DNA of 64,000 nt. Source: Alphaproteobacteria bacterium (lineage in GTDB: Bacteria; Pseudomonadota; Alphaproteobacteria; Micavibrionales; UBA2020). The DNA is taken from positions 2,819,530 through 2,883,529 of the forward strand of contig OZ257145.1 of assembly GCA_965279315.1 (NCBI GenBank). The letters are read 5' to 3'. This document shows, piece after piece, positions 8,736-61,011 of the stretch (position 1 is its first letter; the number at the start of each line of letters is the position of its first letter). Below the pieces are notes generated by a model. It saw nothing but the letters and a program-made list of their open reading frames with translations. It did not search any database and had not been told where the DNA came from. Made by a program: the position numbers and the translations under genes.

Positions 8736-9059
8736 GGCGGAGCCCTCTCCCTTGACCCTTTCACAGATATTTCATCCGCTTGGGGGTCAGTTTTGCTGCC
8801 GTACCTCTATACTTATGTATTTCATTTAAACTTTTATTAAATTTAGTCTCAAATCCAAAAATAAAGATGACACACCCCGCTATGTGGCTGTTTTGTGTAA
8901 TCTTATTAGTCATTTATGTTAATAAATGTCGTTTTAGGGGATTGCCACGGTTCTATATTTCAATACACTTGTTCTACTTATAAGAAAAAAACGGCCTCAG
9001 AGTGTGTGCAAATTGGGGTTCGCAGCCGGAAACCGGCGCAACCTGTTCGGGGGCAGAAA

Positions 9060-10520
9060 ATGACCGAGAACAAGAAGAAACGCGTCTTCACAGTCCTGTC
9101 GATCGACGGCGGCGGCATCCGTGGCGTTGTGCCTGCGCGCATCTTGCAGGAAATCGAGGAGCGCACCGGCAAACCCATCGCCGAATTGTTCGACATGGTC
9201 GGCGGCACATCGACCGGCGCCATCCTCGGCGCAGGCCTTGTAGTGCCTGACGAGCAGAACCCGACCAAGCCGAAACATTCCGCGCAGGAACTGAAAAATT
9301 TTTACTACACCTTCGGCCCGAAAATTTTCCCGGAGCTGCGCTTCAAGAGCATACGCAAGCTGTCCTCCTCCGCCCTCTATGACCCCAAGCCGCTGGAAGA
9401 TGCGCTGAAGGAAAAGCTGGGCGATTACAAGATGAAGGATTCCCTGACCCACCTGCTGATCCCCGCGACGGACATCAAGAATTTCCGCCCGGTCTGGATC
9501 GCGCATATCAAGGGACAGAAAGACAAATCGCCGGAAGGCTGGTCGAGCATGCTGATGCGCGACGCCGTGCGCGCCTCCACCACCGCGCCCACCTATTTCC
9601 CGTCGAAATATTATTCGACCACGCCGAACGAAGACATGCCCAACGTCACGCACCGCCACGCGCTGATCGACGGCGGATTCTTTGCCGGCAATTCCATGCG
9701 CAGGCTGATGACGCAGGCACGGAAGCTCGCCCCGCCCGATGCGGAAATCGTGGTTGTGCACCTTGGCACCGGCAACGTCGAAAACTCGCTGTCACCGGAA
9801 GAATTCAACAAGCTCGGCCCCATCGGCATGATTTCGAAATCGAACGGCAATCTGCTGCTGTCGCTGGTCATCAACATGTCGCTGATGGATGTGGCGAATG
9901 ATATCCGCGACGAGATTGGCGACCGCTTCATCAGCTTCGACGGCATCCTGAACGGCGAGGCCGATCCCGCCGCGCCCACTTCGACGATGGACGATGCCAG
10001 CCTGAAAAACCTGAAGGCGCTTGAAAAATTTGCCGAGAAGATCATCAAGGACAACGATTCCGAAATGGACCGCCTCTGCGATATCCTGAAGCACCGCGTG
10101 TTCGCTGAAGAATACCATCAGGAAAGCAAGAACGCGCTGCTCAAGCTCACGGCCATCCTCGAAGACGTCAAGACCGTCAAGACGCTGGGCAAGACGTATA
10201 AAAAGATTTTGGGTTATGCGAGCGATATCGTGACCGACACGCCAGAGCCGGGCGACGCCGAAATGAAGACGCTGGCGCAGGCGCTGACCGAACAGCACAA
10301 ACACGACCTCGACCGTATCTATCATGTCGTGCAGGACAAGCTGGAGGGCCAGAACAAGATCCTCAACAGCATCAAGGAAGCGGGCGAAGATCTGACCAAA
10401 TTCGTCAAGAAGCTCGGCTCCCCCTTCCGTCCCCTTCCCCCTTCGCCCGACAACGACAATACCGAGGCGAATGCGCAGCCGTGGAAGCACCGCGCAGGCG
10501 ACAAGCCGAAGCAGCCCTAA
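9060..10520 (+). CDS. patatin-like phospholipase with a roughly 190 aa helical C-terminal extension
   Basis: DGGGIRG oxyanion motif, GGTSTG (GxSxG) nucleophile and DGG (catalytic Asp). Start at MTENKKK. The ORF is open from 8916, but its upstream part lies in AT-rich non-coding-looking DNA. Confidence 0.85.
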   Translation: MTENKKKRVFTVLSIDGGGIRGVVPARILQEIEERTGKPIAELFDMVGGTSTGAILGAGLVVPDEQNPTKPKHSAQELKNFYYTFGPKIFPELRFKSIRKLSSSALYDPKPLEDALKEKLGDYKMKDSLTHLLIPATDIKNFRPVWIAHIKGQKDKSPEGWSSMLMRDAVRASTTAPTYFPSKYYSTTPNEDMPNVTHRHALIDGGFFAGNSMRRLMTQARKLAPPDAEIVVVHLGTGNVENSLSPEEFNKLGPIGMISKSNGNLLLSLVINMSLMDVANDIRDEIGDRFISFDGILNGEADPAAPTSTMDDASLKNLKALEKFAEKIIKDNDSEMDRLCDILKHRVFAEEYHQESKNALLKLTAILEDVKTVKTLGKTYKKILGYASDIVTDTPEPGDAEMKTLAQALTEQHKHDLDRIYHVVQDKLEGQNKILNSIKEAGEDLTKFVKKLGSPFRPLPPSPDNDNTEANAQPWKHRAGDKPKQP

Positions 10521-10549: not shown

Positions 10550-11671
10550 GTGATGCGTGTTATAAACACCATCATGTCTTTCGTTCACGATTTTATTTCC
10601 AAACATAAAGGCAAAATCCGCCTCTCCGTGCGCATCACGGTGTCGGCGCTGGCGGCCTATGCGATCAACACATGGCTGCAGCTGCCGCAGGGTTACTGGA
10701 TTGCCTTCACCGCGATCCTTGTCGTGCAGGCGAGCGTCGGCGGCTCGGTCAAGGCGGTGGTGGAGCGCATGATGGGCACATTCGCGGGCGCCGCCTATGG
10801 CGCGTTCATCGCGTCCGTCTGGGGGCACCTGCCGCATGAATATTATTTCGGGGCGATCATCGCGGGCATTGCGCCTATTTCGTTCATCGCCGCCCTCTAT
10901 CCCAGTTTCCGCATCGCACCGATCACGGTGGCCATCGTGCTGTTCAGCGATACCGCGCATAACATGAGCCCGCTTGTGTATGCCGAACACCGCGTCATGG
11001 AAATCGGCGTCGGCTGCCTGATCGGCCTTGTGGTCTCGCTGACCGTCCTGCCGTCACGCGCGCACAAGGTTCTGGCGAATGCGGCGTCGACCGTGCTTGG
11101 CACTTATGCCGACCTGCTGTCCAAGCTGCTGGATGTGGCGGCGGGCAAGCTGGATTATACCGAGGTCGAAAAACAGCATGCCGATATCCGCGCCGCCATC
11201 GGCCGCATGGAATTGGTGGGCGAAGACGCGACACGGGAACGCAAGAGCAAGCTGACCGACGAGCCGGACCCCGACCCCATCCTGCGCATGATCCGCCGCC
11301 TGCGTTTTGACCTTGTGATGATCGGCCGCGCGGTGATGCACCCGATGCCGCCCGCTGTCATGCAGGCATTGAACCCGCCGCTGACGGTTGTTGCCGCGGA
11401 ATCATCGACACTCATGCGCATGGCGGCTGCCACACTGTCCGGCAAGCCGGAAATAAAAGTGCCGGAAAGCCTTGAAATTGCCTATGGCGCGTTCGGCGCG
11501 GCGATGGCGGAACTGCACCGCACCCATGCTCTTGCCCCGCTGACCGAAGGCGAAACGGGGCGCGTGTTCACGCTCAGTTTTTCGCTGGAACAACTGCACC
11601 AGAACCTGCGCGACCTCGTCGCGCGCGCCAATGAATTTGGTGGCGAGGACGATACGGTTACGACCGGGTGA
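10550..11671 (+). CDS. FUSC-family / aromatic acid exporter-like membrane protein
   Basis: 373 aa. N-terminal multi-TM region contains YWIAFTAILVVQ..VGGS..K..ER..GT, typical of the FUSC family. Cytoplasmic helical C-terminus. Start could be GTG 10550, ATG 10553 or ATG 10574. Confidence 0.65.
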   Translation: MMRVINTIMSFVHDFISKHKGKIRLSVRITVSALAAYAINTWLQLPQGYWIAFTAILVVQASVGGSVKAVVERMMGTFAGAAYGAFIASVWGHLPHEYYFGAIIAGIAPISFIAALYPSFRIAPITVAIVLFSDTAHNMSPLVYAEHRVMEIGVGCLIGLVVSLTVLPSRAHKVLANAASTVLGTYADLLSKLLDVAAGKLDYTEVEKQHADIRAAIGRMELVGEDATRERKSKLTDEPDPDPILRMIRRLRFDLVMIGRAVMHPMPPAVMQALNPPLTVVAAESSTLMRMAAATLSGKPEIKVPESLEIAYGAFGAAMAELHRTHALAPLTEGETGRVFTLSFSLEQLHQNLRDLVARANEFGGEDDTVTTG

Positions 11672-11969
11672 TTTTCGTGAACTGCGCGGTTTTCGGCGCG
11701 GCTAATTCATGCGATGTGCCATGGCCGACAACGTCGGTAATGGTCGCAACAGTCTGCACATGATCCGCATGCTCGCGCTGCTTGCGCCCCGCGACGAGGC
11801 CTGCAAGAAAATCGCTGTCCTGCCGCCATTCGGTGATGGGGTCCACGGGTTCTTCATGCGACAAAACCGGCTGCTGCATTTTCAACAGGCGATCAGCGGT
11901 ATCTTCACCACGATCCGCAGAGCCAAAAATGCCCGTAAGCTTTTTCGTGATTTTTTCCCAAGCCGACAT
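11658..11969 (-). CDS. small protein A of the APxTAxF-tail family
   Basis: Start at MSAWEKITKK, 7 nt after the stop of gene B. Ends ..VATITDVVGHGTSHELAAPKTAQFTKITRS. The 3' end overlaps the FUSC gene convergently. Confidence 0.6.
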   Translation of the reverse strand: MSAWEKITKKLTGIFGSADRGEDTADRLLKMQQPVLSHEEPVDPITEWRQDSDFLAGLVAGRKQREHADHVQTVATITDVVGHGTSHELAAPKTAQFTKITRS

Positions 11970-11976
11970 AGGAAAA

Positions 11977-12297
11977 TTACAGGGTTTTCTTGAATGTCGC
12001 CGTTTTGGGCGCGGAAATGCCGCCCGCCGTCGCTTCGGGCTTGAAGCCAGTCGTTGCAACGACCGCATCGGCCTTGGCCTGCGCGGTTGCCTCTTCGGTT
12101 GCGAATTTCACCTGCCCCGATTCAACCATGCCGCGCCATTTCCAGTCGGAAATCGGTTCGGTCAATGCCTGTACGGTGGCAGCGTTTTCCCAAGGGCTCG
12201 GATCAGGCTTGCGCGCATATTCGTCGTTTTTCTTTTCCGACGACGTATTGAACGCGCCCATGAAATTCGAGATTGTGTCTTTAAAAGTCGTTCCCAT
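11977..12297 (-). CDS. small protein B of the APxTAxF-tail family
   Basis: ATG (MGTTFKDTISNFMGAFN) preceded by AGGGG. Ends ..AVVATTGFKPEATAGGISAPKTATFKKTL. Confidence 0.65.
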   Translation of the reverse strand: MGTTFKDTISNFMGAFNTSSEKKNDEYARKPDPSPWENAATVQALTEPISDWKWRGMVESGQVKFATEEATAQAKADAVVATTGFKPEATAGGISAPKTATFKKTL

Positions 12298-12341
12298 TCG
12301 CACCCCTGCACCCCCGCCGGATAATCGACAGGCATGAACAC

Positions 12342-12370
12342 ATTGTATCGCGAATGCACTATTATGTCAA
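12342..12370 (-). promoter_or_regulatory. sigma70-like promoter TTGACA-17-TACAAT (minus strand) upstream of small genes B and A
   Basis: The minus strand reads TTGACAtaatagtgcattcgcgaTACAAT. It lies in the only sizeable gap (about 95 nt) inside the array. Confidence 0.5.
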
Positions 12371-12392
12371 ATTTGACCGCTCGAGCAGGTTG

Positions 12393-12668
12393 CTAACGCC
12401 GAAAACGAGCCGTGCGGGGCGCGATGACGGGGATCTCTGTGCCCGTTGTCATGACGGCGGCAATGCCGGAAACCCGGGTCTGCCGTTCCTGCTTTTCCGC
12501 CTGCGCCGTAAAATGCCGCGCAAGTTCTTCTTCCGCGACAATCAGCTGATCCAGTCTCTCAACAGTCGCCTGCAGGCGCTGCGGGTTGATGCTCGACACA
12601 TAATTGCCGTTTTCATCGCGCTTGACGTTCGCGGCAGCTTTTTCAATCATGCTTTCGATATCGAACAT
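12393..12668 (-). CDS. small protein C of the APxTAxF-tail family
   Basis: GAGGA SD 7 nt upstream of the ATG. Ends ..IAAVMTTGTEIPVIAPRTARFRR. Confidence 0.7.
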   Translation of the reverse strand: MFDIESMIEKAAANVKRDENGNYVSSINPQRLQATVERLDQLIVAEEELARHFTAQAEKQERQTRVSGIAAVMTTGTEIPVIAPRTARFRR

Positions 12669-12678
12669 ATTTTATCCT

Positions 12679-12942
12679 CTAGAGGCTGACTGCTTTTTTG
12701 AATCGCGCGGTTTGCGGTGCGGCAACGGGCTTCTGCGCTCCCTTTCCGACCACCCACTGCACTTCGGCAAGGTTGCGCTTTTCCAGGTATTGCGTATATT
12801 CCGCCATCTTGCGCGCCTCCATTTCTTCTATCTCTCGTGTCCGGCGCCGGTCTTCCTCTTGCAGGCGCTGGTCCAGCGCGCGTTTGCGATCATCCGCTGA
12901 AGATCCTGCGAAGACGTTCCTGAACTGGTTGAAAATACTCAT
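12679..12942 (-). CDS. small protein D of the APxTAxF-tail family
   Basis: The ATG overlaps the stop of gene E (ATGA). Charged middle (EEDRRRTREIEEMEARK). Ends ..WVVGKGAQKPVAAPQTARFKKAVSL. Confidence 0.7.
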   Translation of the reverse strand: MSIFNQFRNVFAGSSADDRKRALDQRLQEEDRRRTREIEEMEARKMAEYTQYLEKRNLAEVQWVVGKGAQKPVAAPQTARFKKAVSL

Positions 12943-13334
12943 GACAGCACCCCGGCCCCGCGCTGTTTCCTGAAGCGCGCTGTTTGCGGCGCGGAAACCT
13001 GCCCCTGCATGCCATCGGAAACGATCGTGGCAACGGCCGTCATCCGCTGGTAATCAGCGATACGCGCGGCCTGTTGCTGCTGGAATTGCCATTGCTGCGT
13101 GCGCTGCTGTTCTTCCTCATGCGCCTGTTCGTGGAGTGCGTCTATTTTTCCCTGCAACACACGGCTTGCATTGTTGATCTGGCCGATAATTTCCTGCCGT
13201 GCTTTTCCTGTTCCGTCCACAGCGCCCTGCATGCGGTCATGCGCCGCGAGAAGCTTGGCGGTGTCGATCATTTTACGGTTTTCGAAACCGGCAGGCAGGT
13301 CAGGGAATGCGAAATCGTTGAATGAATCTTTCAT
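12939..13334 (-). CDS. small protein E of the APxTAxF-tail family
   Basis: The ATG overlaps the stop of gene F (ATGA). Q/E-rich coiled-coil-like middle. Ends ..AVATIVSDGMQGQVSAPQTARFRKQRGAGVLS. Confidence 0.7.
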   Translation of the reverse strand: MKDSFNDFAFPDLPAGFENRKMIDTAKLLAAHDRMQGAVDGTGKARQEIIGQINNASRVLQGKIDALHEQAHEEEQQRTQQWQFQQQQAARIADYQRMTAVATIVSDGMQGQVSAPQTARFRKQRGAGVLS

Positions 13335-13744
13335 GCCTGTCTGCCCATTTTCGTGAAGCGCGCAGTGCGCGGCGCCTTGACTTCGGCTTGCGTGCCGCCG
13401 GCCATGACGGTGGCAACCTGCGATGCGCGTTGCGCGGGCGTGGCGTCGGGCGCTTGCGCGACGGGAGGTGCATCACCGGACGGCAGGATGCCAATATTCG
13501 ATTTGGGTTTTGGCAGCCCGAAATTCTTGGCGGAGTTCATGAGCCTGTCATCATGCGCGCTGATATTCGCGTGGCTGATCTCGTGGCTGAAAATGAATGG
13601 GTCGAGCTGTTGTGTTTTGTTGATTTTATTATTTTCGAGTTCGAGTTTCTTGTCGGCCAGTTCCATGCGCTTCAGTTCATTCTCGCCATAAGGGTCGAGA
13701 TAGACCGACATCATCTTGGCCGCTTTGCTGAAAAATTCCTTCAC
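13331..13744 (-). CDS. small protein F of the APxTAxF-tail family
   Basis: The ORF is open to 13762 (GTG). I prefer the GTG at 13744 (VKEFFSKAAK), which has GGGGACGGGG upstream. An ATG at 13714 is also possible. Ends ..VATVMAGGTQAEVKAPRTARFTKMGRQA. Confidence 0.6.
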   Translation of the reverse strand: MKEFFSKAAKMMSVYLDPYGENELKRMELADKKLELENNKINKTQQLDPFIFSHEISHANISAHDDRLMNSAKNFGLPKPKSNIGILPSGDAPPVAQAPDATPAQRASQVATVMAGGTQAEVKAPRTARFTKMGRQA

Positions 13745-13789
13745 GATATACCCCGTCCCCACCGCGCTTTAATGCGCGGCATGGGAAAC

Positions 13790-13818
13790 AGTGTATCAAA
13801 ACTATCATATTATGTCAA
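13790..13818 (-). promoter_or_regulatory. sigma70-like promoter TTGACA-17-TACACT (minus strand) upstream of small genes F-E-D-C
   Basis: The minus strand reads TTGACAtaatatgatagttttgaTACACT. It shares the string ATTTGACATAAT with the promoter at 12342-12370. Confidence 0.5.
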
Positions 13819-13844: not shown

Positions 13845-14201
13845 TCAAGGCTTAGGAATACGCGGCGGGCTGGCGGCGGGCGGATTACGCTTTTCCGAGA
13901 TGACGGTGGTTTCGTTTGCCTTCGCTTCCCATGTGACGTGGAAATCCCAGTTGGGATCGAATTCCAGTTTGATGAGTTTCAGCGCCTTTGCCGCGTCGCA
14001 CGGCGGGATGCTGGCAGGCACGACGATCTGTTGCTGGTCGCAGGCTTTTTCCGCGCAGCGCAGGTCAACCTGCTTCGCCAGTTCTTCATATGCCGCTTTC
14101 TGGTCGGACGTCATAGTGGATTTCATGAACTGGATGCGCAACAGGCGGAGCAACGCTGGTTCGGAGAAGCTTCGCCGGAAATTGTTGAACATGCTCATCA
14201 T
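13845..14201 (-). CDS. small protein G; N-terminus resembles the array family, C-terminus differs (Cys-containing, ends PPRIPKP)
   Basis: AAGGAT SD upstream. The N-terminus MMSMFNNFRRSFSE is close to gene D's MSIFNQFRNVFAGS. There is no APxTAxF tail. Confidence 0.55.
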   Translation of the reverse strand: MMSMFNNFRRSFSEPALLRLLRIQFMKSTMTSDQKAAYEELAKQVDLRCAEKACDQQQIVVPASIPPCDAAKALKLIKLEFDPNWDFHVTWEAKANETTVISEKRNPPAASPPRIPKP

Positions 14202-14214
14202 ACAATCCTTGTTA

Positions 14215-16565
<2,351 letters not shown>

Positions 16566-35650: not shown

Positions 35651-37021
35651 ATGAGCAAAAAGCTCTACATCAAGACCTGGGGTTGTCAGATGAATGTCTA
35701 TGACAGCCAAAAGATGGCCGATGTTCTGGCCCCCCTCGGCTATGCGCCGGTGGATGCGCCCGAAGGCGCCGACCTGATGATCCTCAATACCTGCCATATC
35801 CGTGAAAAAGCGACTGAAAAGGTGTTCTCCGACCTCGGCCGCCTGCGCGACCATAAAGAAGCCAAGGCAGAAGCCGGCGAAAAAGCCTTGATCGCCGTCG
35901 CCGGCTGCGTGGCGCAGGCCGAAGGGCCTGTCATCCTTCAGCGTGCAAAATACGTCGATATGGTGTTCGGCCCGCAGACCTACCACCGCCTGCCTGAAAT
36001 GATACTGGCCGCGAATGGCGGGGAGCGTGTGGTGAACACCGATTTCCCCGTTGAATCGAAATTCGACAACCTGCCCGCCTCCACCAGCCAAGGCCCCTCG
36101 GCCATGCTGTCGGTACAGGAAGGCTGCGACAAATTCTGCACTTTCTGCGTTGTCCCCTACACCCGCGGCGCGGAATATTCGCGTCCCGTGCAGCAGATCC
36201 TCGACGAAGCCGCAAAATCCGTCGAACAGGGCGCGAAGGAAGTCATGCTGCTCGGCCAGAACGTGAATGCGTTCCACGGCGAAGGCGCAGGCGGATCATG
36301 GGATCTCGCGCGCCTGATCGATGCGCTGGCGCAGATCAACGGGCTGGAACGCATCCGCTACATGACCTCGCACCCCAGCGACATGAACGACGCGCTGATC
36401 GATGCGCATGGCAGCATCGCGAAACTGATGCCCTTCCTGCACCTGCCCGTTCAGAGCGGTTCCGACCGCATCCTCGACCTCATGAACCGCAAGCACACCG
36501 CCGCGCAGTACATCGACATCATCGCGCGCGTCAAGAAGGTGCGCCCCGATATTGCGCTGTCGTCCGATTTCATTGTCGGCTTCCCCGGCGAGACGGAAGA
36601 AGACCATGCGGCGACGGTTGAAATGGTGAAACAGGTCGGCTTCGCATCCTGCTATTCGTTTAAATACAGCCCCCGCCCCGGCACCCCCGGCGCAGTCATG
36701 GGCGGCATCGTTCCCGAAGCTGTGAAGGACACGCGCCTGCATGAACTGCAGGCGATTTTGTTTGCGCAGCAATCCGAATTCAACCAGCGCAGCGTGGGCA
36801 AAACCATGACCGTGCTGTTTGACCGCAAAGGCGACAAGGAAGGCCAGCTCCTCGGCAAATCACCGTGGAACCAGTCGGTCTATGTTACCGCGCCCGAGCG
36901 CCTCTACGGCCAAATGATTGACGTGACGATTGATAAGGCCTTCCAGAACGGGATGGCCGGTACTATCGCGACGACTGAAACAACAACAAAAAACCCCAGC
37001 CAGAAGAAGGAAGCAGCATGA
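35651..37021 (+). CDS. miaB: tRNA-2-methylthio-N6-dimethylallyladenosine synthase
   Basis: MTTase N-domain (TWGCQMN), radical SAM CDKFCTFCVVP, and a TRAM C-terminus. Confidence 0.95.
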   Translation: MSKKLYIKTWGCQMNVYDSQKMADVLAPLGYAPVDAPEGADLMILNTCHIREKATEKVFSDLGRLRDHKEAKAEAGEKALIAVAGCVAQAEGPVILQRAKYVDMVFGPQTYHRLPEMILAANGGERVVNTDFPVESKFDNLPASTSQGPSAMLSVQEGCDKFCTFCVVPYTRGAEYSRPVQQILDEAAKSVEQGAKEVMLLGQNVNAFHGEGAGGSWDLARLIDALAQINGLERIRYMTSHPSDMNDALIDAHGSIAKLMPFLHLPVQSGSDRILDLMNRKHTAAQYIDIIARVKKVRPDIALSSDFIVGFPGETEEDHAATVEMVKQVGFASCYSFKYSPRPGTPGAVMGGIVPEAVKDTRLHELQAILFAQQSEFNQRSVGKTMTVLFDRKGDKEGQLLGKSPWNQSVYVTAPERLYGQMIDVTIDKAFQNGMAGTIATTETTTKNPSQKKEAA

Positions 37022-38163
37022 GCAACTACAGCAACAAACAGCGCAATCCCAAGCCGGAAGGCACTCTTCACACCATTACGCTTGATTCTCCCAATGACAA
37101 ACGGCTGGCGAGCATCCTGTACCGTCAGGACCGTGGCCATCTGCATGTTTACATGGGCCAGAAATTCGGCGTCCAGCTGGATGTGAACTACAACCCCGAC
37201 AAAATCACCTTCTACGGCAGCGAAGAGAACGCGACCCGCATGAAGCGTGCATTCGACATGCTGTCCGGCCAGATCGAGACGAAGGCGCATATCGACAAGG
37301 ACGCGATCAGCAAGATCGCAGCACAGCTGAACCCCGCTGCAGGCCTCAGCGCAGCAACCCCTGCATCCGCTGCCTTCAAGGCCGCGAACCAGAACAAACG
37401 CCCTTCCCCGGGCGCTGCGAAGCACGAAGGCGGCTCGTCGGGCGCTGAATTCCAGGCGTTGAACCCCGCCCAGGAAAACCTTGCGAAACTGATCGCTGAA
37501 AACGACCTGATTTTCGCGCTCGGGCCTGCTGGTACCGGCAAGACCCACGTGGCCGTCGTGAAGGGCATCGAAGCCCTGAAAAGCGGCGCTGTGGAAAAAC
37601 TGCTGCTCGCACGTCCCGCTGCGGAAGCCGGCGAAAAAATCGGTTACCTGCCCGGCGACGCAAACGCGAAACTGGCTCCCTACATGCGCCCCATCTATGA
37701 CGAGCTGGACAAGGCATTCGGCCCTGGCAAATACAAGTCCATGATGGAAACCGGCGTTATCGAGATCGTGCCGATCGGTTACATGCGCGGCCGTACGTTT
37801 GATAATGCCTTCATCATCGTCGATGAATCGCAGAACCTGACCCGCGAACAGACCAAGATGGCCATTACCCGCATCGGTAAAGGCTCGAAAATGGTCATGA
37901 CCGGCGACCCCCAGCAGATCGACCTGCGCGACAAGAATGACTCCGGCCTGATCTGGGCTTCGCAGATCATGGAAGGTAAAAAAGGCGCTGCGACCCAGAC
38001 CTTCGAACAGACGCACGTTGTCCGTTCCGAGATCGTGATGTCGTTCGTTGCCGCCGTGGATGAATTTGAAGGCCTCGACAAGCCCAAGTTCGACGCCCCC
38101 GGCGCAACGCCCACACCGGCAAAAGGCCAAACAAATCAACCGCCTGCACCCGGTAAGTGGTAA
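37018..38163 (+). CDS. PhoH-family ATPase paralog with an inserted Ala/Pro-rich linker and a Pro-rich C-terminal tail
   Basis: The start overlaps the miaB stop (ATGA). Walker A GPAGTGKTH, Walker B IIVDESQN and the GD..Q.DL motif. The N-terminal KH-like region is homologous to that of the next gene. Confidence 0.8.
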   Translation: MSNYSNKQRNPKPEGTLHTITLDSPNDKRLASILYRQDRGHLHVYMGQKFGVQLDVNYNPDKITFYGSEENATRMKRAFDMLSGQIETKAHIDKDAISKIAAQLNPAAGLSAATPASAAFKAANQNKRPSPGAAKHEGGSSGAEFQALNPAQENLAKLIAENDLIFALGPAGTGKTHVAVVKGIEALKSGAVEKLLLARPAAEAGEKIGYLPGDANAKLAPYMRPIYDELDKAFGPGKYKSMMETGVIEIVPIGYMRGRTFDNAFIIVDESQNLTREQTKMAITRIGKGSKMVMTGDPQQIDLRDKNDSGLIWASQIMEGKKGAATQTFEQTHVVRSEIVMSFVAAVDEFEGLDKPKFDAPGATPTPAKGQTNQPPAPGKW

Positions 38164-38250: not shown

Positions 38251-39264
38251 TTGACCAAGCAAGCTGTCCGGCGCGTCGGACTTCAGTTCGATGACAATGC
38301 CCTCGTCCCCCTGCTTTTCGGCGAACATGACATGCATCTCGCCCAGATCGAGGAAGAACTCGACATCGAAATCGCCAGCCGCGGCAACGAAGTCGTGATC
38401 ATCGGGCCGAAGCCGAAAATCGTTGCGGCGCAGGCCGTGTTCGATGTGCTGTGGGAACGCCTGTTGAAGGGCCTGCCCGTCGTTACCGAAGACGTGACCG
38501 CCGCCATCAACGTCGTCAAAAGCCCGATGAACCAGGGCAGCCGCGACATGGCGATGGCCGCGCTGAAAGAACCGCAGGTCAAGCTGCAGACGAAAAACAA
38601 GCAGATCACGCCCCGCACGCCCAAACAGGCTGAATATCTTGAAGCCATCAAGAACAACGCCCTTGTCTTCGGCCTCGGCCCTGCCGGTACGGGCAAGACC
38701 TTCCTTGCCGTTGCGCAGGCCGTGACCATGCTGCAATCGGGCGAAGTCGACCGCATGATCCTGACCCGCCCTGCAGTGGAGGCCGGCGAAAGCCTCGGCT
38801 TCCTGCCCGGCACGATGCAGGAAAAAATCGACCCCTACCTGCGCCCGATTTACGATGCGCTGAATTACATGATGCCCGCCGAACAGCTGGCGCGCCGCTT
38901 GGCCGATGGCACGATTGAAATCGCGCCACTCGCCTTCATGCGTGGCCGCACGCTGGGTTCCTGCGTCGTCATCCTGGACGAGGCGCAGAACACCACGCCC
39001 ACGCAGATGAAAATGGCGCTGACCCGCATCGGGGAGAACAGCAAGATGATCATCACCGGCGACTTGTCGCAGACCGACTTGCCGAACAACCAGAAATCCG
39101 GCCTGCGCGATGCGGTCGAGGTGCTGAAGGGCGGCAAGGATATCGCCTTTATCGCCTTCGGCGATGCGGACGTCGTGCGTTCCCGCCTTGTGCGCGAAAT
39201 CGTCGCGGCCTACGAAAAACGCGACGCCGTGCAGCCCAATAAATACGGCAAGGACACGCCATGA
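38251..39264 (+). CDS. phoH: PhoH-like ATPase (YbeZ)
   Basis: GPAGTGKTF, VILDEAQN, GDLSQTDLP. Canonical position upstream of ybeY. TTG start in the ORF track. Confidence 0.9.
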   Translation: MTKQAVRRVGLQFDDNALVPLLFGEHDMHLAQIEEELDIEIASRGNEVVIIGPKPKIVAAQAVFDVLWERLLKGLPVVTEDVTAAINVVKSPMNQGSRDMAMAALKEPQVKLQTKNKQITPRTPKQAEYLEAIKNNALVFGLGPAGTGKTFLAVAQAVTMLQSGEVDRMILTRPAVEAGESLGFLPGTMQEKIDPYLRPIYDALNYMMPAEQLARRLADGTIEIAPLAFMRGRTLGSCVVILDEAQNTTPTQMKMALTRIGENSKMIITGDLSQTDLPNNQKSGLRDAVEVLKGGKDIAFIAFGDADVVRSRLVREIVAAYEKRDAVQPNKYGKDTP

Positions 39265-57921: not shown

Positions 57922-58611
57922 TTATGGTTTCGGTTTGGAAACACCCGATTTCGGCGGCTGGAACGCTGCGGGAACCTTGGTATTTTCCAGCTGGTGATGG
58001 TCGGTCATGATGCCGTTTTCGTATTCGAAGATGATCGGGGTCGCATTCGCGATGCGATGGCCCGATCCCCAGATTCCCTTTTTCGGGTCGGGAATTTCGA
58101 GGCCCATCACGACATCGAACGCATGCACGATTCCCGCATGTGCGGCGACCAGTACCGTCTCGCCCCGCTCAACGCGCGGCAGGATTTCGTTGCGGTAAAA
58201 TTTCTCGACGCGCTGCACCACCTGCCAGTCGCTTTCGCCATTCGGCAGCGGCGTGATGTAGCTGCGCAGGTAACCCGTAATGCGCGGGTCATCCATATGC
58301 ATGCCCGTGAAATCGCCGGCGTCGCTTTCCATGATGACGGGGGATTGTTCGATCTCCCACACGCCATTTTTGTTGAGATGCGCGTTGTTTGCGGATGTTT
58401 CGAGCGCAAGCACGGCAGTATTAAATGCGCGGCTGAGCGTCGATGAATAAACCTTGTCAAACGCCAACGCACCGAGGCACAGCCCCGCTTCACGCGCCTG
58501 TTCTTCGCCGAGCGGCGTCAGCGGTGCGTCCGCCTGCCCCGTCATCAAATGCTGTTCGTTATATGTCGTTTGCCCGTGCCGGATCAGCACGAGTTTGCCC
58601 TTGATCGTCAT
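57922..58611 (-). CDS. histidine phosphatase family protein, paralog 2
   Basis: LIRHGQTTYN, AAHAG. Tail ..PPKSGVSKPKP. Confidence 0.85.
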   Translation of the reverse strand: MTIKGKLVLIRHGQTTYNEQHLMTGQADAPLTPLGEEQAREAGLCLGALAFDKVYSSTLSRAFNTAVLALETSANNAHLNKNGVWEIEQSPVIMESDAGDFTGMHMDDPRITGYLRSYITPLPNGESDWQVVQRVEKFYRNEILPRVERGETVLVAAHAGIVHAFDVVMGLEIPDPKKGIWGSGHRIANATPIIFEYENGIMTDHHQLENTKVPAAFQPPKSGVSKPKP

Positions 58612-59693: not shown

Positions 59694-60401
59694 TTAAGGA
59701 GAAACGCCGCCAGCCTTCGGCGGTTTCGGGGGCTTGTTCTGGTTGGCGGCCTCGAGTTCTTTGGGGTTGTCGAGGCGGTAGTGGCGCACCAGTTTGCCGT
59801 CTTCATATTCGGCAACCGTTGGCGTTGCGTTCGGCACGCGTGCCTTTTTCGTCCATCCTGCGTTGTCGGGCTGCGGTTGTTCCTGAAAACCCAGCACGAT
59901 GTCGAATGCGCGCATGATGCCGGAATGCGAAACGACCAATACCGTTTCACCGCGCGCGAGGCGCGGCTGCACTTCGGCATCGAAAAATTTCTGCACGCGG
60001 TCGACGACCTGCTGGTCGCTTTCGCCACCCGGCAGCGGCGTATCGAAGCGGCGGCCGTAATTCAAAATCTCCGGATCGGTCTTGTGGTTGCGCCCCGTAA
60101 AATCGCCGGTATGCAGTTCCGCGATTTCGGCGCGCTGCTCCACATCGTATTTGCCGTCTTTCAGCAGATGCGCCTGGTTGCCCGCGGTTTCCAGCGCGAG
60201 CGCCGCCGTGTTGAACGCGCGGCCGAGGTTGGAGGCGTAAGCCTTGTCGAACTGGAACACGCTGATCACGCGCCCGGCTTCCCGCGCCTGTTCCTCCCCC
60301 GTCGCGTTCAGCGGAATATCGCGCTGGCCGGTCATGAGGTGCTGGACGTTGTAATCGGTTTGTCCGTGGCGGAGGATGACGAGGGTGCCTTTGTTAGCCA
60401 T
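59694..60401 (-). CDS. histidine phosphatase family protein, paralog 3
   Basis: Start at MANKGTLVILRHGQTDYN, which overlaps the gpmA stop (ATGGCTAA). VSHSG. Tail ..NKPPKPPKAGGVSP. Confidence 0.85.
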   Translation of the reverse strand: MANKGTLVILRHGQTDYNVQHLMTGQRDIPLNATGEEQAREAGRVISVFQFDKAYASNLGRAFNTAALALETAGNQAHLLKDGKYDVEQRAEIAELHTGDFTGRNHKTDPEILNYGRRFDTPLPGGESDQQVVDRVQKFFDAEVQPRLARGETVLVVSHSGIMRAFDIVLGFQEQPQPDNAGWTKKARVPNATPTVAEYEDGKLVRHYRLDNPKELEAANQNKPPKPPKAGGVSP

Positions 60402-61011
60402 TCGCTGCTTTCTTGATGAAGTAATTCTTTTGCTTCTGCGCCTTGTCCATTTCGAACACCAGCGGCACGCCGGTCGGGATTTCCGCGCTGTTGATGTTTT
60501 CGGGCGTGTTTTCCTCGAGGATGATGAGCATCGCGCGGAGCGTGTTGCCATGCGCTGCCACCAGCACGTTTTTGCCTTCCTTCAGCAGCGGCTCGATATG
60601 CGCCTTGTAATACGGGCGCACGCGGTCAACCACATCCTTCAGGCTTTCGCCGTTGGGGGGCTGCACGTCATAGGAACGGCGCCAGATATGCACCTGCTCC
60701 TCGCCGAATTTTTTGCGCATCTCGTCCTTGTTCAGGCCGGTGAGGTCGCCGTAGTCGCGCTCGCGCAGGTCGTCGTCCTTGATGAAATCATGCTGCTGGC
60801 CTGCCTCTTTCATCGCAAGCGATGCGGTGTTGTAGGCGCGTTTCAGGGTGGAAGTGAAGACAGCGTCGAACTTGATGTTCTTCAGCGACTGGCCGGCGGA
60901 TTTCGCTTCCTCGATGCCGGTTGCGCTCAGGTCAACATCGGTGAAGCCGGTGAATTTGTTTTCCTTGTTCCATTCGCTTTCGCCATGGCGGAGCAGTACG
61001 AGGTAATTCAT
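60394..61011 (-). CDS. gpmA: 2,3-bisphosphoglycerate-dependent phosphoglycerate mutase (short form)
   Basis: LLRHGESEWNKENKFTG..D..L...G..EA; RSYD..PP.GESL.D...R; AAHGNTLRA. Confidence 0.9.
   Translation of the reverse strand: MNYLVLLRHGESEWNKENKFTGFTDVDLSATGIEEAKSAGQSLKNIKFDAVFTSTLKRAYNTASLAMKEAGQQHDFIKDDDLRERDYGDLTGLNKDEMRKKFGEEQVHIWRRSYDVQPPNGESLKDVVDRVRPYYKAHIEPLLKEGKNVLVAAHGNTLRAMLIILEENTPENINSAEIPTGVPLVFEMDKAQKQKNYFIKKAANG

Follow-up and report, generated by a model that had tools for sequence, protein, structure and literature searches.

The window analyzed here, a stretch of 64,000 nucleotides (64 kb) from an alphaproteobacterium (assembly GCA_965279315.1, contig OZ257145.1, positions 2,819,530 to 2,883,529), holds six consecutive minus-strand genes, A–F (11658–13744), each of which ends in one common C-terminal module. 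The module recurs on ankyrin-repeat proteins and on further small proteins of the same lineage whose bodies are unrelated to one another. We tentatively read it as a C-terminal translocation or targeting signal, type IV-like in character and common to an effector-like repertoire, a possibility that we take seriously without calling it probable.

A Common Module at the Ends of Six Array Genes

A preliminary description of this DNA had listed six minus-strand open reading frames (ORFs) and quoted their C-termini; all of them exist and their ends match exactly, while the gene starts were reset here by means of Shine-Dalgarno sequences and orthologues (Table 1). Translated in all six frames, the window contains the pattern AP.TA.F exactly six times, each at the C-terminus of one of A–F (mean 0.1 and maximum 2 in 200 shuffles). 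The conserved module comprises about 27 amino acids (aa), longer than the nine-residue motif first described, and runs from a hydrophobic stretch through G-(T), three variable residues, a hydrophobic residue and one variable residue to A-P-x-T-A-x-F-basic-basic. As had also been noted, the copies are spelled with different synonymous codons (Pro CCG/CCC; Thr ACC/ACG/ACA/ACT; Phe TTC/TTT; Arg CGC/CGA/CGT), with a third-position identity of 0.52 at the module's invariant codons, so that conservation acts on the peptide and not on the DNA.

Between the motif and the C-terminus lie 2–10 residues in the window genes and 0–12 across the family, and the terminal residues that follow it vary as well (TRS, KTL, RR, VSL, VLS, RQA), which argues against PDZ, Tsp, ClpX and similar readers of the extreme C-terminus. 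The net charge of the last 14 residues is +3 or +4 in the array proteins, and A–F contain neither a signal peptide nor a transmembrane segment, hydrophobic runs being at most eight residues long. In the AlphaFold2 model of B, the sole model to resolve the tail, this part is disordered (predicted local distance difference test, pLDDT, <50), as would fit a short linear motif whose ordering depends on the binding of a partner; in the low-confidence AlphaFold2 model of F, the first half of the module is a helix.

Among natural variants, the threonine is replaced in P0148 (APGVARF), P0151 (ASVARF) and P0019 (APKPAQF) while the rest of the motif is kept, and the best-kept part among such variants is [TV]-A-[RK]-F-basic-basic; the change from Thr to Val suggests a role in beta-branched packing. 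Duplicated cores occur as well, as in one tail with APKTARFKKTARFQ; the tandem copies in P0050 and P0051, two E-like proteins from related metagenomes (APKTARFKKTARFQTVTV), hint that T-A-R-F-basic-basic is the minimal functional unit. The same residue might instead be a phosphorylation switch, with A-P-x-pT-A-x-F docking, for example, an FHA domain and a Ser/Thr kinase switching a set of small regulators. FHA domains read pT-x-x-hydrophobic, and the threonine here is nearly invariant with Phe at +3; yet the three natural replacements by Val or Pro speak against a phosphate acceptor, no kinase or FHA gene is linked to the carriers, and we hold such a switch to be very improbable.

A New Family in a Narrow Lineage

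Searches of A–G against Pfam, NCBIfam, PHROGs and PADLOC returned sub-threshold matches or none, and searches of the PDB sequences with a profile of B and with a profile of the tail returned no match; together these agree with the earlier remark that the motif was not recognized as any named family. Nothing relevant was found in the literature on the motif, the accessions or the lineage. A profile search of 1.84 billion representative proteins gave 14 matches at E ≤0.001, all of them tail-bearing and 87–156 aa long, and all from one narrow clade of uncultured alphaproteobacteria. Confinement to a single genome, which would have spoken against a general system, was thus not what we found: the lineage has the motif in many metagenome-assembled genomes (MAGs) and metagenome contigs. 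All relatives derive from MAGs or metagenome assemblies, which are labeled “Alphaproteobacteria bacterium,” “bacterium,” “Bdellovibrionales bacterium” (the group to which NCBI assigns Micavibrio) and “Patescibacteria group.” The last of these labels, borne by GCA_035626855.1 (loci L005 and L016) as “Patescibacteria group bacterium,” is almost certainly wrong, since its aspartate aminotransferase is 92% identical to that of the window and the synteny is common to both.

Two further searches added no members. A tail-only, word-indexed protein search returned one 50-aa fragment and missed known members, and therefore says nothing about absence; a scan for related loci with APKTARF[RKS]K matched 27 stretches, none of which was confirmed, a yield roughly at the estimated chance level. 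The family is new, while the logic of one terminal address on many cargoes is already known.

Portability of the Module

Outside as well as inside the array, the module ends at least 11 unrelated small bodies (A–F, the protein P0053, the 102-, 126- and 127-aa proteins of related loci L015–L017, and E-like variants) and at least six ankyrin-repeat proteins (Pfam Ank_2, 52–138 bits). In two related loci, L010 and L011, an ankyrin-repeat protein of 186 aa with the ending ...TGGTGSNLPAPKTARFKKTKPKP comes after the carrier P0053 (156 aa). The ankyrin carrier P0062, encoded on a contig of 2.41 Mb from the same genus as the window, has as neighbors a P0053-like carrier, NrtR, a 481-aa Sel1-repeat protein, GapR and flagellar genes, and separate contigs of GCA_035626855.1 together encode at least nine carriers.

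Further carriers came from a custom DNA pattern scan of JGI metagenomes, the hits of which were scored with a local tail profile that filtered out about 90 of 100 as chance matches. In the family's own loci this profile gives carriers 26–69 bits against a background of at most 9 bits; in loci preselected for the motif, true ankyrin tails score 15–42 bits and chance matches up to 23 bits, and because of this overlap the ORF context was used as well. The scan yielded five further carriers, all from one metagenome that also holds the L017 array, and each is an ankyrin-repeat protein by Pfam that ends in the module. Among the best 120 ankyrin matches obtained with six ankyrin queries from 5.8 billion proteins, the tail occurs only on the lineage's 186–212-aa proteins, and the generic ankyrin proteins in that set are without it.

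The presence of one module on ankyrin-repeat proteins and on further unrelated small proteins is as a portable targeting or docking peptide predicts. This portability is the strongest evidence for the view put forward in the preliminary description, that variable bodies with a fixed tail would dock to a common partner, and our results support that view, each refuting check that we could make having gone in its favor. In two genomes, a 481-aa Sel1-repeat protein lies about 1 kb from the pair formed by P0053 and its ankyrin-repeat neighbor (L010, 5926–7371; L118, 11602–13047). The Sel1-repeat protein is TPR-like and of a peptide-binding type, and is a candidate for the partner that binds the tail.

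Ankyrin carriers also invite the idea that the module mimics a eukaryotic host motif and binds a host protein after delivery, export being by other means. Its basic character, which resembles a nuclear localization signal, would suit this, as would its presence on ankyrin-repeat proteins and the ends of B and of some C and F relatives, which look like the KKxx dilysine signal, and effectors often bear such motifs (PMC3814349). However, one motif on more than 15 unrelated bodies, with a conserved helix ahead of it, is atypical of mimicry, and any host is itself hypothetical. None of the eukaryotic motifs considered (PP1 RVxF, 14-3-3, PIF, or a dilysine signal in its correct context) fits the module, and we regard host mimicry as improbable.

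Bodies and N-Termini of the Carriers

Ahead of the module the proteins have little in common. The middles had been described as Q/E/R-rich and coiled-coil-like, which stands for C, D and E and fails for F and for A and B, these last two having a body core of their own (P-I-[ST]-[DE]-W). B, with the body core EPISDWKWRGMVESGQVKF, is the best conserved and most widespread member of the array, and A is its full-length paralogue, His-rich ahead of the tail; C and E have in common the stretch [IV]-[DN]-P-x-[KR]-L...R-[LI]-Q. The N-terminal amphipathic pattern reported earlier holds up in part: the hydrophobic moment is 0.45–0.76 in most members, though individual shuffle tests were marginal.

F is laid out as an N-terminal amphipathic helix, an HExxH motif, a Pro-rich linker and the C-terminal module. 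HExxH is invariant in all seven F-type proteins compared (window F, L001–L003, L006, L008 and P0054; overall identity 42–66%), no third His is conserved among them, and F has no Pfam match. Zincins have HExxH in an active-site helix of a compact fold, with a third zinc ligand; for F as a mini-metallopeptidase of this kind there is no support from AlphaFold2, which gives no compact fold in a model that is itself of low confidence, and HExxH may be a metal site or a peptidase motif. The models of B and F both have low confidence (pLDDT 58 and 59, respectively) and show a few helices, the N-terminal one included; that of B has four short helices, and that of F is uniformly poor (predicted template modeling score 0.19).

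Fast Divergence Under Purifying Selection

Pairwise comparison with orthologues gives ratios of nonsynonymous to synonymous substitution rates (dN/dS) of 0.07–0.32 for the array genes (F, 0.17–0.26; C, 0.16–0.32; B, 0.07–0.23; A, 0.16–0.19), of 0.02–0.08 for flanking genes and of 0.04–0.10 for the gene G, which adjoins the array. A ratio near 1, which would have told against the family, was not found; the array genes are under purifying selection, which implies that A–F are probably translated. Their dN is nonetheless about 10 times that of the flanking genes. Between the two lineages that hold the array, aspartate aminotransferase is 92% identical, G 74%, B 62% and A 43% (A against P0048), and in the sister lineage the array members besides A and B are replaced by unrelated bodies.

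Copies are gained, lost and left to decay between close relatives. F has orthologues in L001–L003, L006, L008 and L014 and in the proteins P0054 and P0056; E-like relatives are P0050, P0051, P0052 and P0055, together with copies in L001, L005 and L006; C has orthologues in P0020, P0022, P0026 and P0049 and in L002, L003 and L014; and for D none was seen among the related loci fetched. Loci with the same flanks range from G and B only to G with six genes. The order is G, F, E, D, C, B, A in the window; G, F, C, E, B, A in L014; G, F, E', B, A in L001 and L006; G, F, C, B, A in L002; G, F, B, A in L008 and L009; G, F, C, B in L003; G, B in L004; and G, the 102-, 126- and 127-aa proteins and an A-like gene in L015–L017. 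Two copies are visibly decayed: that of B in L002 (10001–10321) has an in-frame stop at codon 22, and an E-like copy in L006 (5213–5599) has a degenerate, extended tail (APQNRAFSQK...).

What Could Read the Module

In the tentative reading given at the outset, a lineage-restricted, fast-evolving set of cytoplasmically made proteins would each bear the portable module, built as a hydrophobic stretch, a Gly turn and an extended basic peptide (hydrophobic-x-A-P-x-T-A-R/x-F-basic-basic). One receptor of an export machine would read this as a linear peptide, and small helical proteins as well as ankyrin-repeat proteins would be delivered by the same route. Such a signal would stand closest to the basic, unstructured C-terminal signals that type IV coupling proteins read in alphaproteobacteria, a type I or an undescribed route being also allowed. 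That an export machine reads the module, which machine this may be, and that the proteins act outside the producing cell, we infer from three features taken together: the carriers are unrelated, leaderless and hydrophilic, they have in common one disordered basic peptide in an internal register, and they turn over fast, as would befit the substrate repertoire of a single machine. Evolution of the array is effector-like in that its dN is about 10-fold that of the flanks at a dN/dS of 0.1–0.3, its content varies and some copies decay. Neighbors of eukaryote type, namely the Sel1-repeat protein beside ankyrin carriers and a patatin near the array, may be counted on the same side.

Bacterial ankyrin proteins without a signal peptide are typically substrates of type IV or type I systems. 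The carriers recall the substrates of VirB/D4 type IV systems (Agrobacterium VirF, VirE2 and VirE3; Anaplasma AnkA and Ats-1) in having a C-terminal, unstructured, hydrophilic and uncleaved signal with a net positive charge and Arg/Lys near the end, and in being otherwise unrelated proteins that include ankyrin-repeat proteins. Type IV C-terminal signals have a loose consensus only, of the type R-x7-R-x-R-x-R, whereas here five positions are near-invariant and are preceded by a conserved hydrophobic stretch; the carriers also differ from VirB/D4 substrates in their common N-terminal amphipathic helix. Under the S4TE criteria, the last 25 residues of alphaproteobacterial type IV effectors hold at least three H/R/K and a charge of at least +2 (PMC3814349), and among the carriers the former applies to 28 of 28 and the latter to 24 of 28.

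Type I-secreted ankyrin and tandem-repeat proteins of Orientia and Ehrlichia have HlyBD-compatible C-terminal signals, ankyrin proteins that are without a signal peptide being exported by way of one that is not cleaved, and in type I signals generally the last ~60 residues are rich in LDAVTSIF (37–63%), poor in KHPMWC and usually acidic (PMC4315096). The last 60 residues of the carriers contain 38–60% LDAVTSIF, which lies in the reported range, with 7–27% KHPMWC and a mean pI of 9.6. Unlike type I signals, therefore, these C-termini are basic and contain K, P and M, and they have a sharp motif where type I signals have none. It is the agreement with the S4TE charge criteria and the failure of the type I profile that lead us to favor a type IV-like signal. 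Among the scanned array neighbors and related loci there is no gene for an ABC transporter or a membrane-fusion protein, genes that often, if not always, are linked to type I substrates. The possible relative Micavibrio is reported to have a type I system.

Several points weigh against export. The motif is sharper than known secretion signals: those of type I and type IV systems are loose in sequence, and a motif as sharp as this is more typical of peptide–domain docking. The S4TE charge features are present and yet unspecific. Our view of secretion components covers the scanned parts of the window and short related loci, and these contain no secretion system, coupling protein or receptor. Micavibrio aeruginosavorus, the one cultured organism that may be a relative, is reported to have type I and type II and no type III or type IV systems in strain ARL-13 (PMC3189940); that the window belongs near Micavibrio is a guess from the NCBI label of a single MAG. 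The near-consensus and apparently constitutive sigma-70 promoters of the array (Table 1) are unexpected for tightly regulated effectors, and expression, secretion and lifestyle are all read here from sequence alone. In a more speculative form, about which we are doubtful, the module, perhaps jointly with the amphipathic helix at the N-terminus, would address proteins to an undescribed delivery route, or to an unusually sequence-specific variant of a known one, in a lineage living together with other cells or preying on them.

A quite different role would be that of an intracellular docking peptide, by which adaptors or regulators and ankyrin scaffolds are tethered to one bacterial hub (a membrane complex, polar scaffold, compartment shell, chaperone or protease) without any export, the N-terminal helix adding membrane binding. 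Short linear motifs of comparable sharpness in disordered tails are familiar from chemoreceptors, where the aromatic NWETF pentapeptide at the end of a disordered tail docks CheR and CheB, and from cargo of encapsulins and bacterial microcompartments, where one short terminal peptide stands behind a flexible linker and some cargo is small, helical and metal-binding. Our module is like NWETF in being a short, aromatic-containing peptide on the disordered tail of variable proteins, and differs in sequence, in carriers that are not chemoreceptors and in a position off the extreme C-terminus. With the compartment cargo it has in common the logic of unrelated proteins bearing one terminal peptide; on the other hand, it contains no motif of the GSL-x-IGSLK type, ankyrin cargo would be unprecedented, and neither a Pfam match to encapsulin or microcompartment proteins nor a shell gene was found in the window or the loci examined. 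Other evidence for docking is that PspA and Vipp1 have a membrane-binding N-terminal helix which the helix of most members resembles, that strong, constitutive-looking promoters drive the array, that in both lineages G and the gene for a FUSC-family membrane protein remain next to the array, and that the invariant HExxH of F and the His-rich A could mean metal-binding cargo. The resemblance to PspA is confined to the first ~12 residues, no Pfam match to the PspA_IM30 domain being obtained at E ≤1, and Pfam gives no relationship to PspA, encapsulins or microcompartments. Moreover, very fast divergence, copy-number change and gene decay would be unusual for housekeeping adaptors, G is absent beside dispersed carriers, none of the loci examined has a linked gene for a shell, scaffold or protease, and ankyrin repeats with a Sel1-repeat neighbor point outward, to interactions of eukaryote type. 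We consider docking without export unlikely, yet the main rival of the export reading.

There remains the notion of a processing or degradation signal, whether a follower of the kind found in ribosomally synthesized and post-translationally modified peptides (RiPPs), a sortase- or exosortase-like signal, a C-terminal degron or a translation-arrest peptide. Several precursor-like genes stand in a row, the HExxH of F could be a peptidase motif, and the motif looks superficially like a sorting signal: sortases recognize LPxTG, or LP[QK]T[AS]T in Gram-negative bacteria, and [A]-P-x-T-[A], with A-P-K-T-A as an example close to LPxTG/LPxTA, is likewise an x-P-x-T-A/G pentapeptide followed by basic residues. 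Against all this, the proteins lack a signal peptide, and no hydrophobic segment comes after the motif. What is conserved lies at the C-terminus, behind bodies of 87–240 aa, some of them folded ankyrin domains, and neither the spacing to the end nor the last residues are constant. The scanned neighbors on either side of the array encode no sortase, ABC exporter or modifying enzyme, no regulated gene follows downstream and the model of F shows no compact protease fold; a signal of this kind seems to us hardly credible. In particular, a sortase or exosortase signal was rejected because basic residues follow the motif directly where a hydrophobic segment would be expected, RiPP precursors, which have a conserved leader and a variable core beside genes for modifying enzymes or a transporter, because of the lack of such an enzyme among the scanned neighbors, the C-terminal place of the conserved part and the ankyrin carriers, and a C-end degron or PDZ ligand (SsrA-like, Tsp, or the DegS-activating YxF), which is read at the free C-terminus in a fixed register, because of the 0–12 variable residues and differing ends after Phe. 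Outer-membrane protein beta-signals, SsrA/ClpX tags, clamp-binding motifs, the FtsZ C-terminal peptide, myristoylation and PP1 RVxF were likewise considered and rejected on sequence features, since signal peptides and transmembrane segments are lacking, the register varies and the residues are wrong.

Organization and Neighborhood of the Array

Two near-consensus promoters of sigma-70 type, one ahead of F and one ahead of B, imply two operons, F-E-D-C and B-A (Table 1). The stop codon of F overlaps the start of E (ATGA), and that of E the start of D in the same way. Both promoters look strong and constitutive; the sequence of the F promoter is kept in all related loci and that of the B promoter in L001–L005. 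With their leaders they are mutually paralogous and strongly conserved, following the pattern ATTTGACATAAT-N12-GATAYAAT and then a T/CCATGCC box in the window and L001–L005, which suggests common regulation. A structured leader RNA is unsupported (consensus energy -0.4 kcal/mol), and Rfam has no family match anywhere in the window.

Table 1. Coordinates of the array and adjoining features in the 64-kb window.
Feature	Positions	Strand	Length	Remarks
FUSC-family membrane protein gene	10550–11671			convergent with A
Gene A	11658–11969	minus	103 aa	not the 136-aa ORF
A module	11661–11747	minus		core APKTAQF, 11679–11699
Gene B	11977–12297	minus	106 aa	head of operon B-A
B module	11980–12060	minus		core APKTATF, 11992–12012
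Promoter ahead of B	12342–12370	minus		near-consensus sigma-70-type, TTGACA-17-TACAAT, 11/12 matches
B promoter and leader	12342–12375			
Gene C	12393–12668	minus	91 aa	GAGGA Shine-Dalgarno sequence ahead
C module	12396–12470	minus		core APRTARF, 12402–12422
Gene D	12679–12942	minus	87 aa	charged helical body
D module	12682–12768	minus		core APQTARF, 12700–12720
Gene E	12939–13334	minus	131 aa	Q/E-rich, helical body
E module	12942–13040	minus		core APQTARF, 12972–12992
Gene F	13331–13744	minus	137 aa	GTG start; head of operon F-E-D-C
F module	13334–13423	minus		core APRTARF, 13355–13375
HExxH of F	13571–13585	minus		residues 54–58
Promoter ahead of F	13790–13818	minus		near-consensus sigma-70-type, TTGACA-17-TACACT, TG before the -10 hexamer
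F promoter and leader	13790–13833			
Gene G	13845–14198	minus	117 aa	in every syntenic locus, separates the array from the aspartate aminotransferase gene
Aspartate aminotransferase gene	14215–15492			flanks the array beyond G

G begins like a family member (MSMFNNFRRSF) and has no tail; as a diverged member it was rejected, hhalign finding no relationship. Both G and the FUSC-family gene stay beside the array in the two lineages and are not found next to dispersed carriers. The 3' ends of A and of the FUSC-family gene overlap by 14 bp (11658–11671), an arrangement kept in related loci. In the ORFs scanned, about 8 kb on each side of the array, the neighbors are two NUDIX proteins, a PAS histidine kinase, a patatin, FUSC, aspartate aminotransferase, an APH-type kinase, LigB and a CN-hydrolase; none is a RiPP enzyme, in agreement with what had been reported, and the patatin-like phospholipase gene lies close by, two genes from the array.

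Two observations stand apart from the array. Unrelated proteins of the lineage have Lys/Pro-rich C-termini (..DKPKQP, ..GGMKP, ..SKPKP, ..PPKPPK.., ..KTKPKP), encoded in the window at 8916–10520, 14215–15492, 57922–58611 and 59694–60551 and found also on G and on ankyrin tails; these may be a habit of the lineage or a second terminal feature. The genes of two paralogous PhoH-like ATPases (37018–38163 and 38251–39264) adjoin each other downstream of a MiaB-type radical-SAM gene.

Implications

Few secretion or targeting signals can be recognized directly in a sequence, and those that can are useful; the signals of type I, III and IV systems are mostly too loose for motif-based lists of substrates. 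If the tail is such a signal, its profile would yield the whole set of cargo proteins in an uncultured lineage, and the tail used as bait would lead to the receptor and could also serve as a compact tag for export experiments. Arrays of tiny, fast-evolving and strongly promoted proteins near genes for ankyrin-repeat, Sel1-repeat and patatin proteins suggest that this group, for which metagenomes are the only source, interacts with other cells. Should the delivery-route reading be true, the motif alone would define a complete effector repertoire, in which tiny diversifying proteins stand beside ankyrin-repeat proteins; and if the module instead docks its carriers to an internal hub, it would still represent a new peptide–domain interaction, with more than 15 natural types of client.

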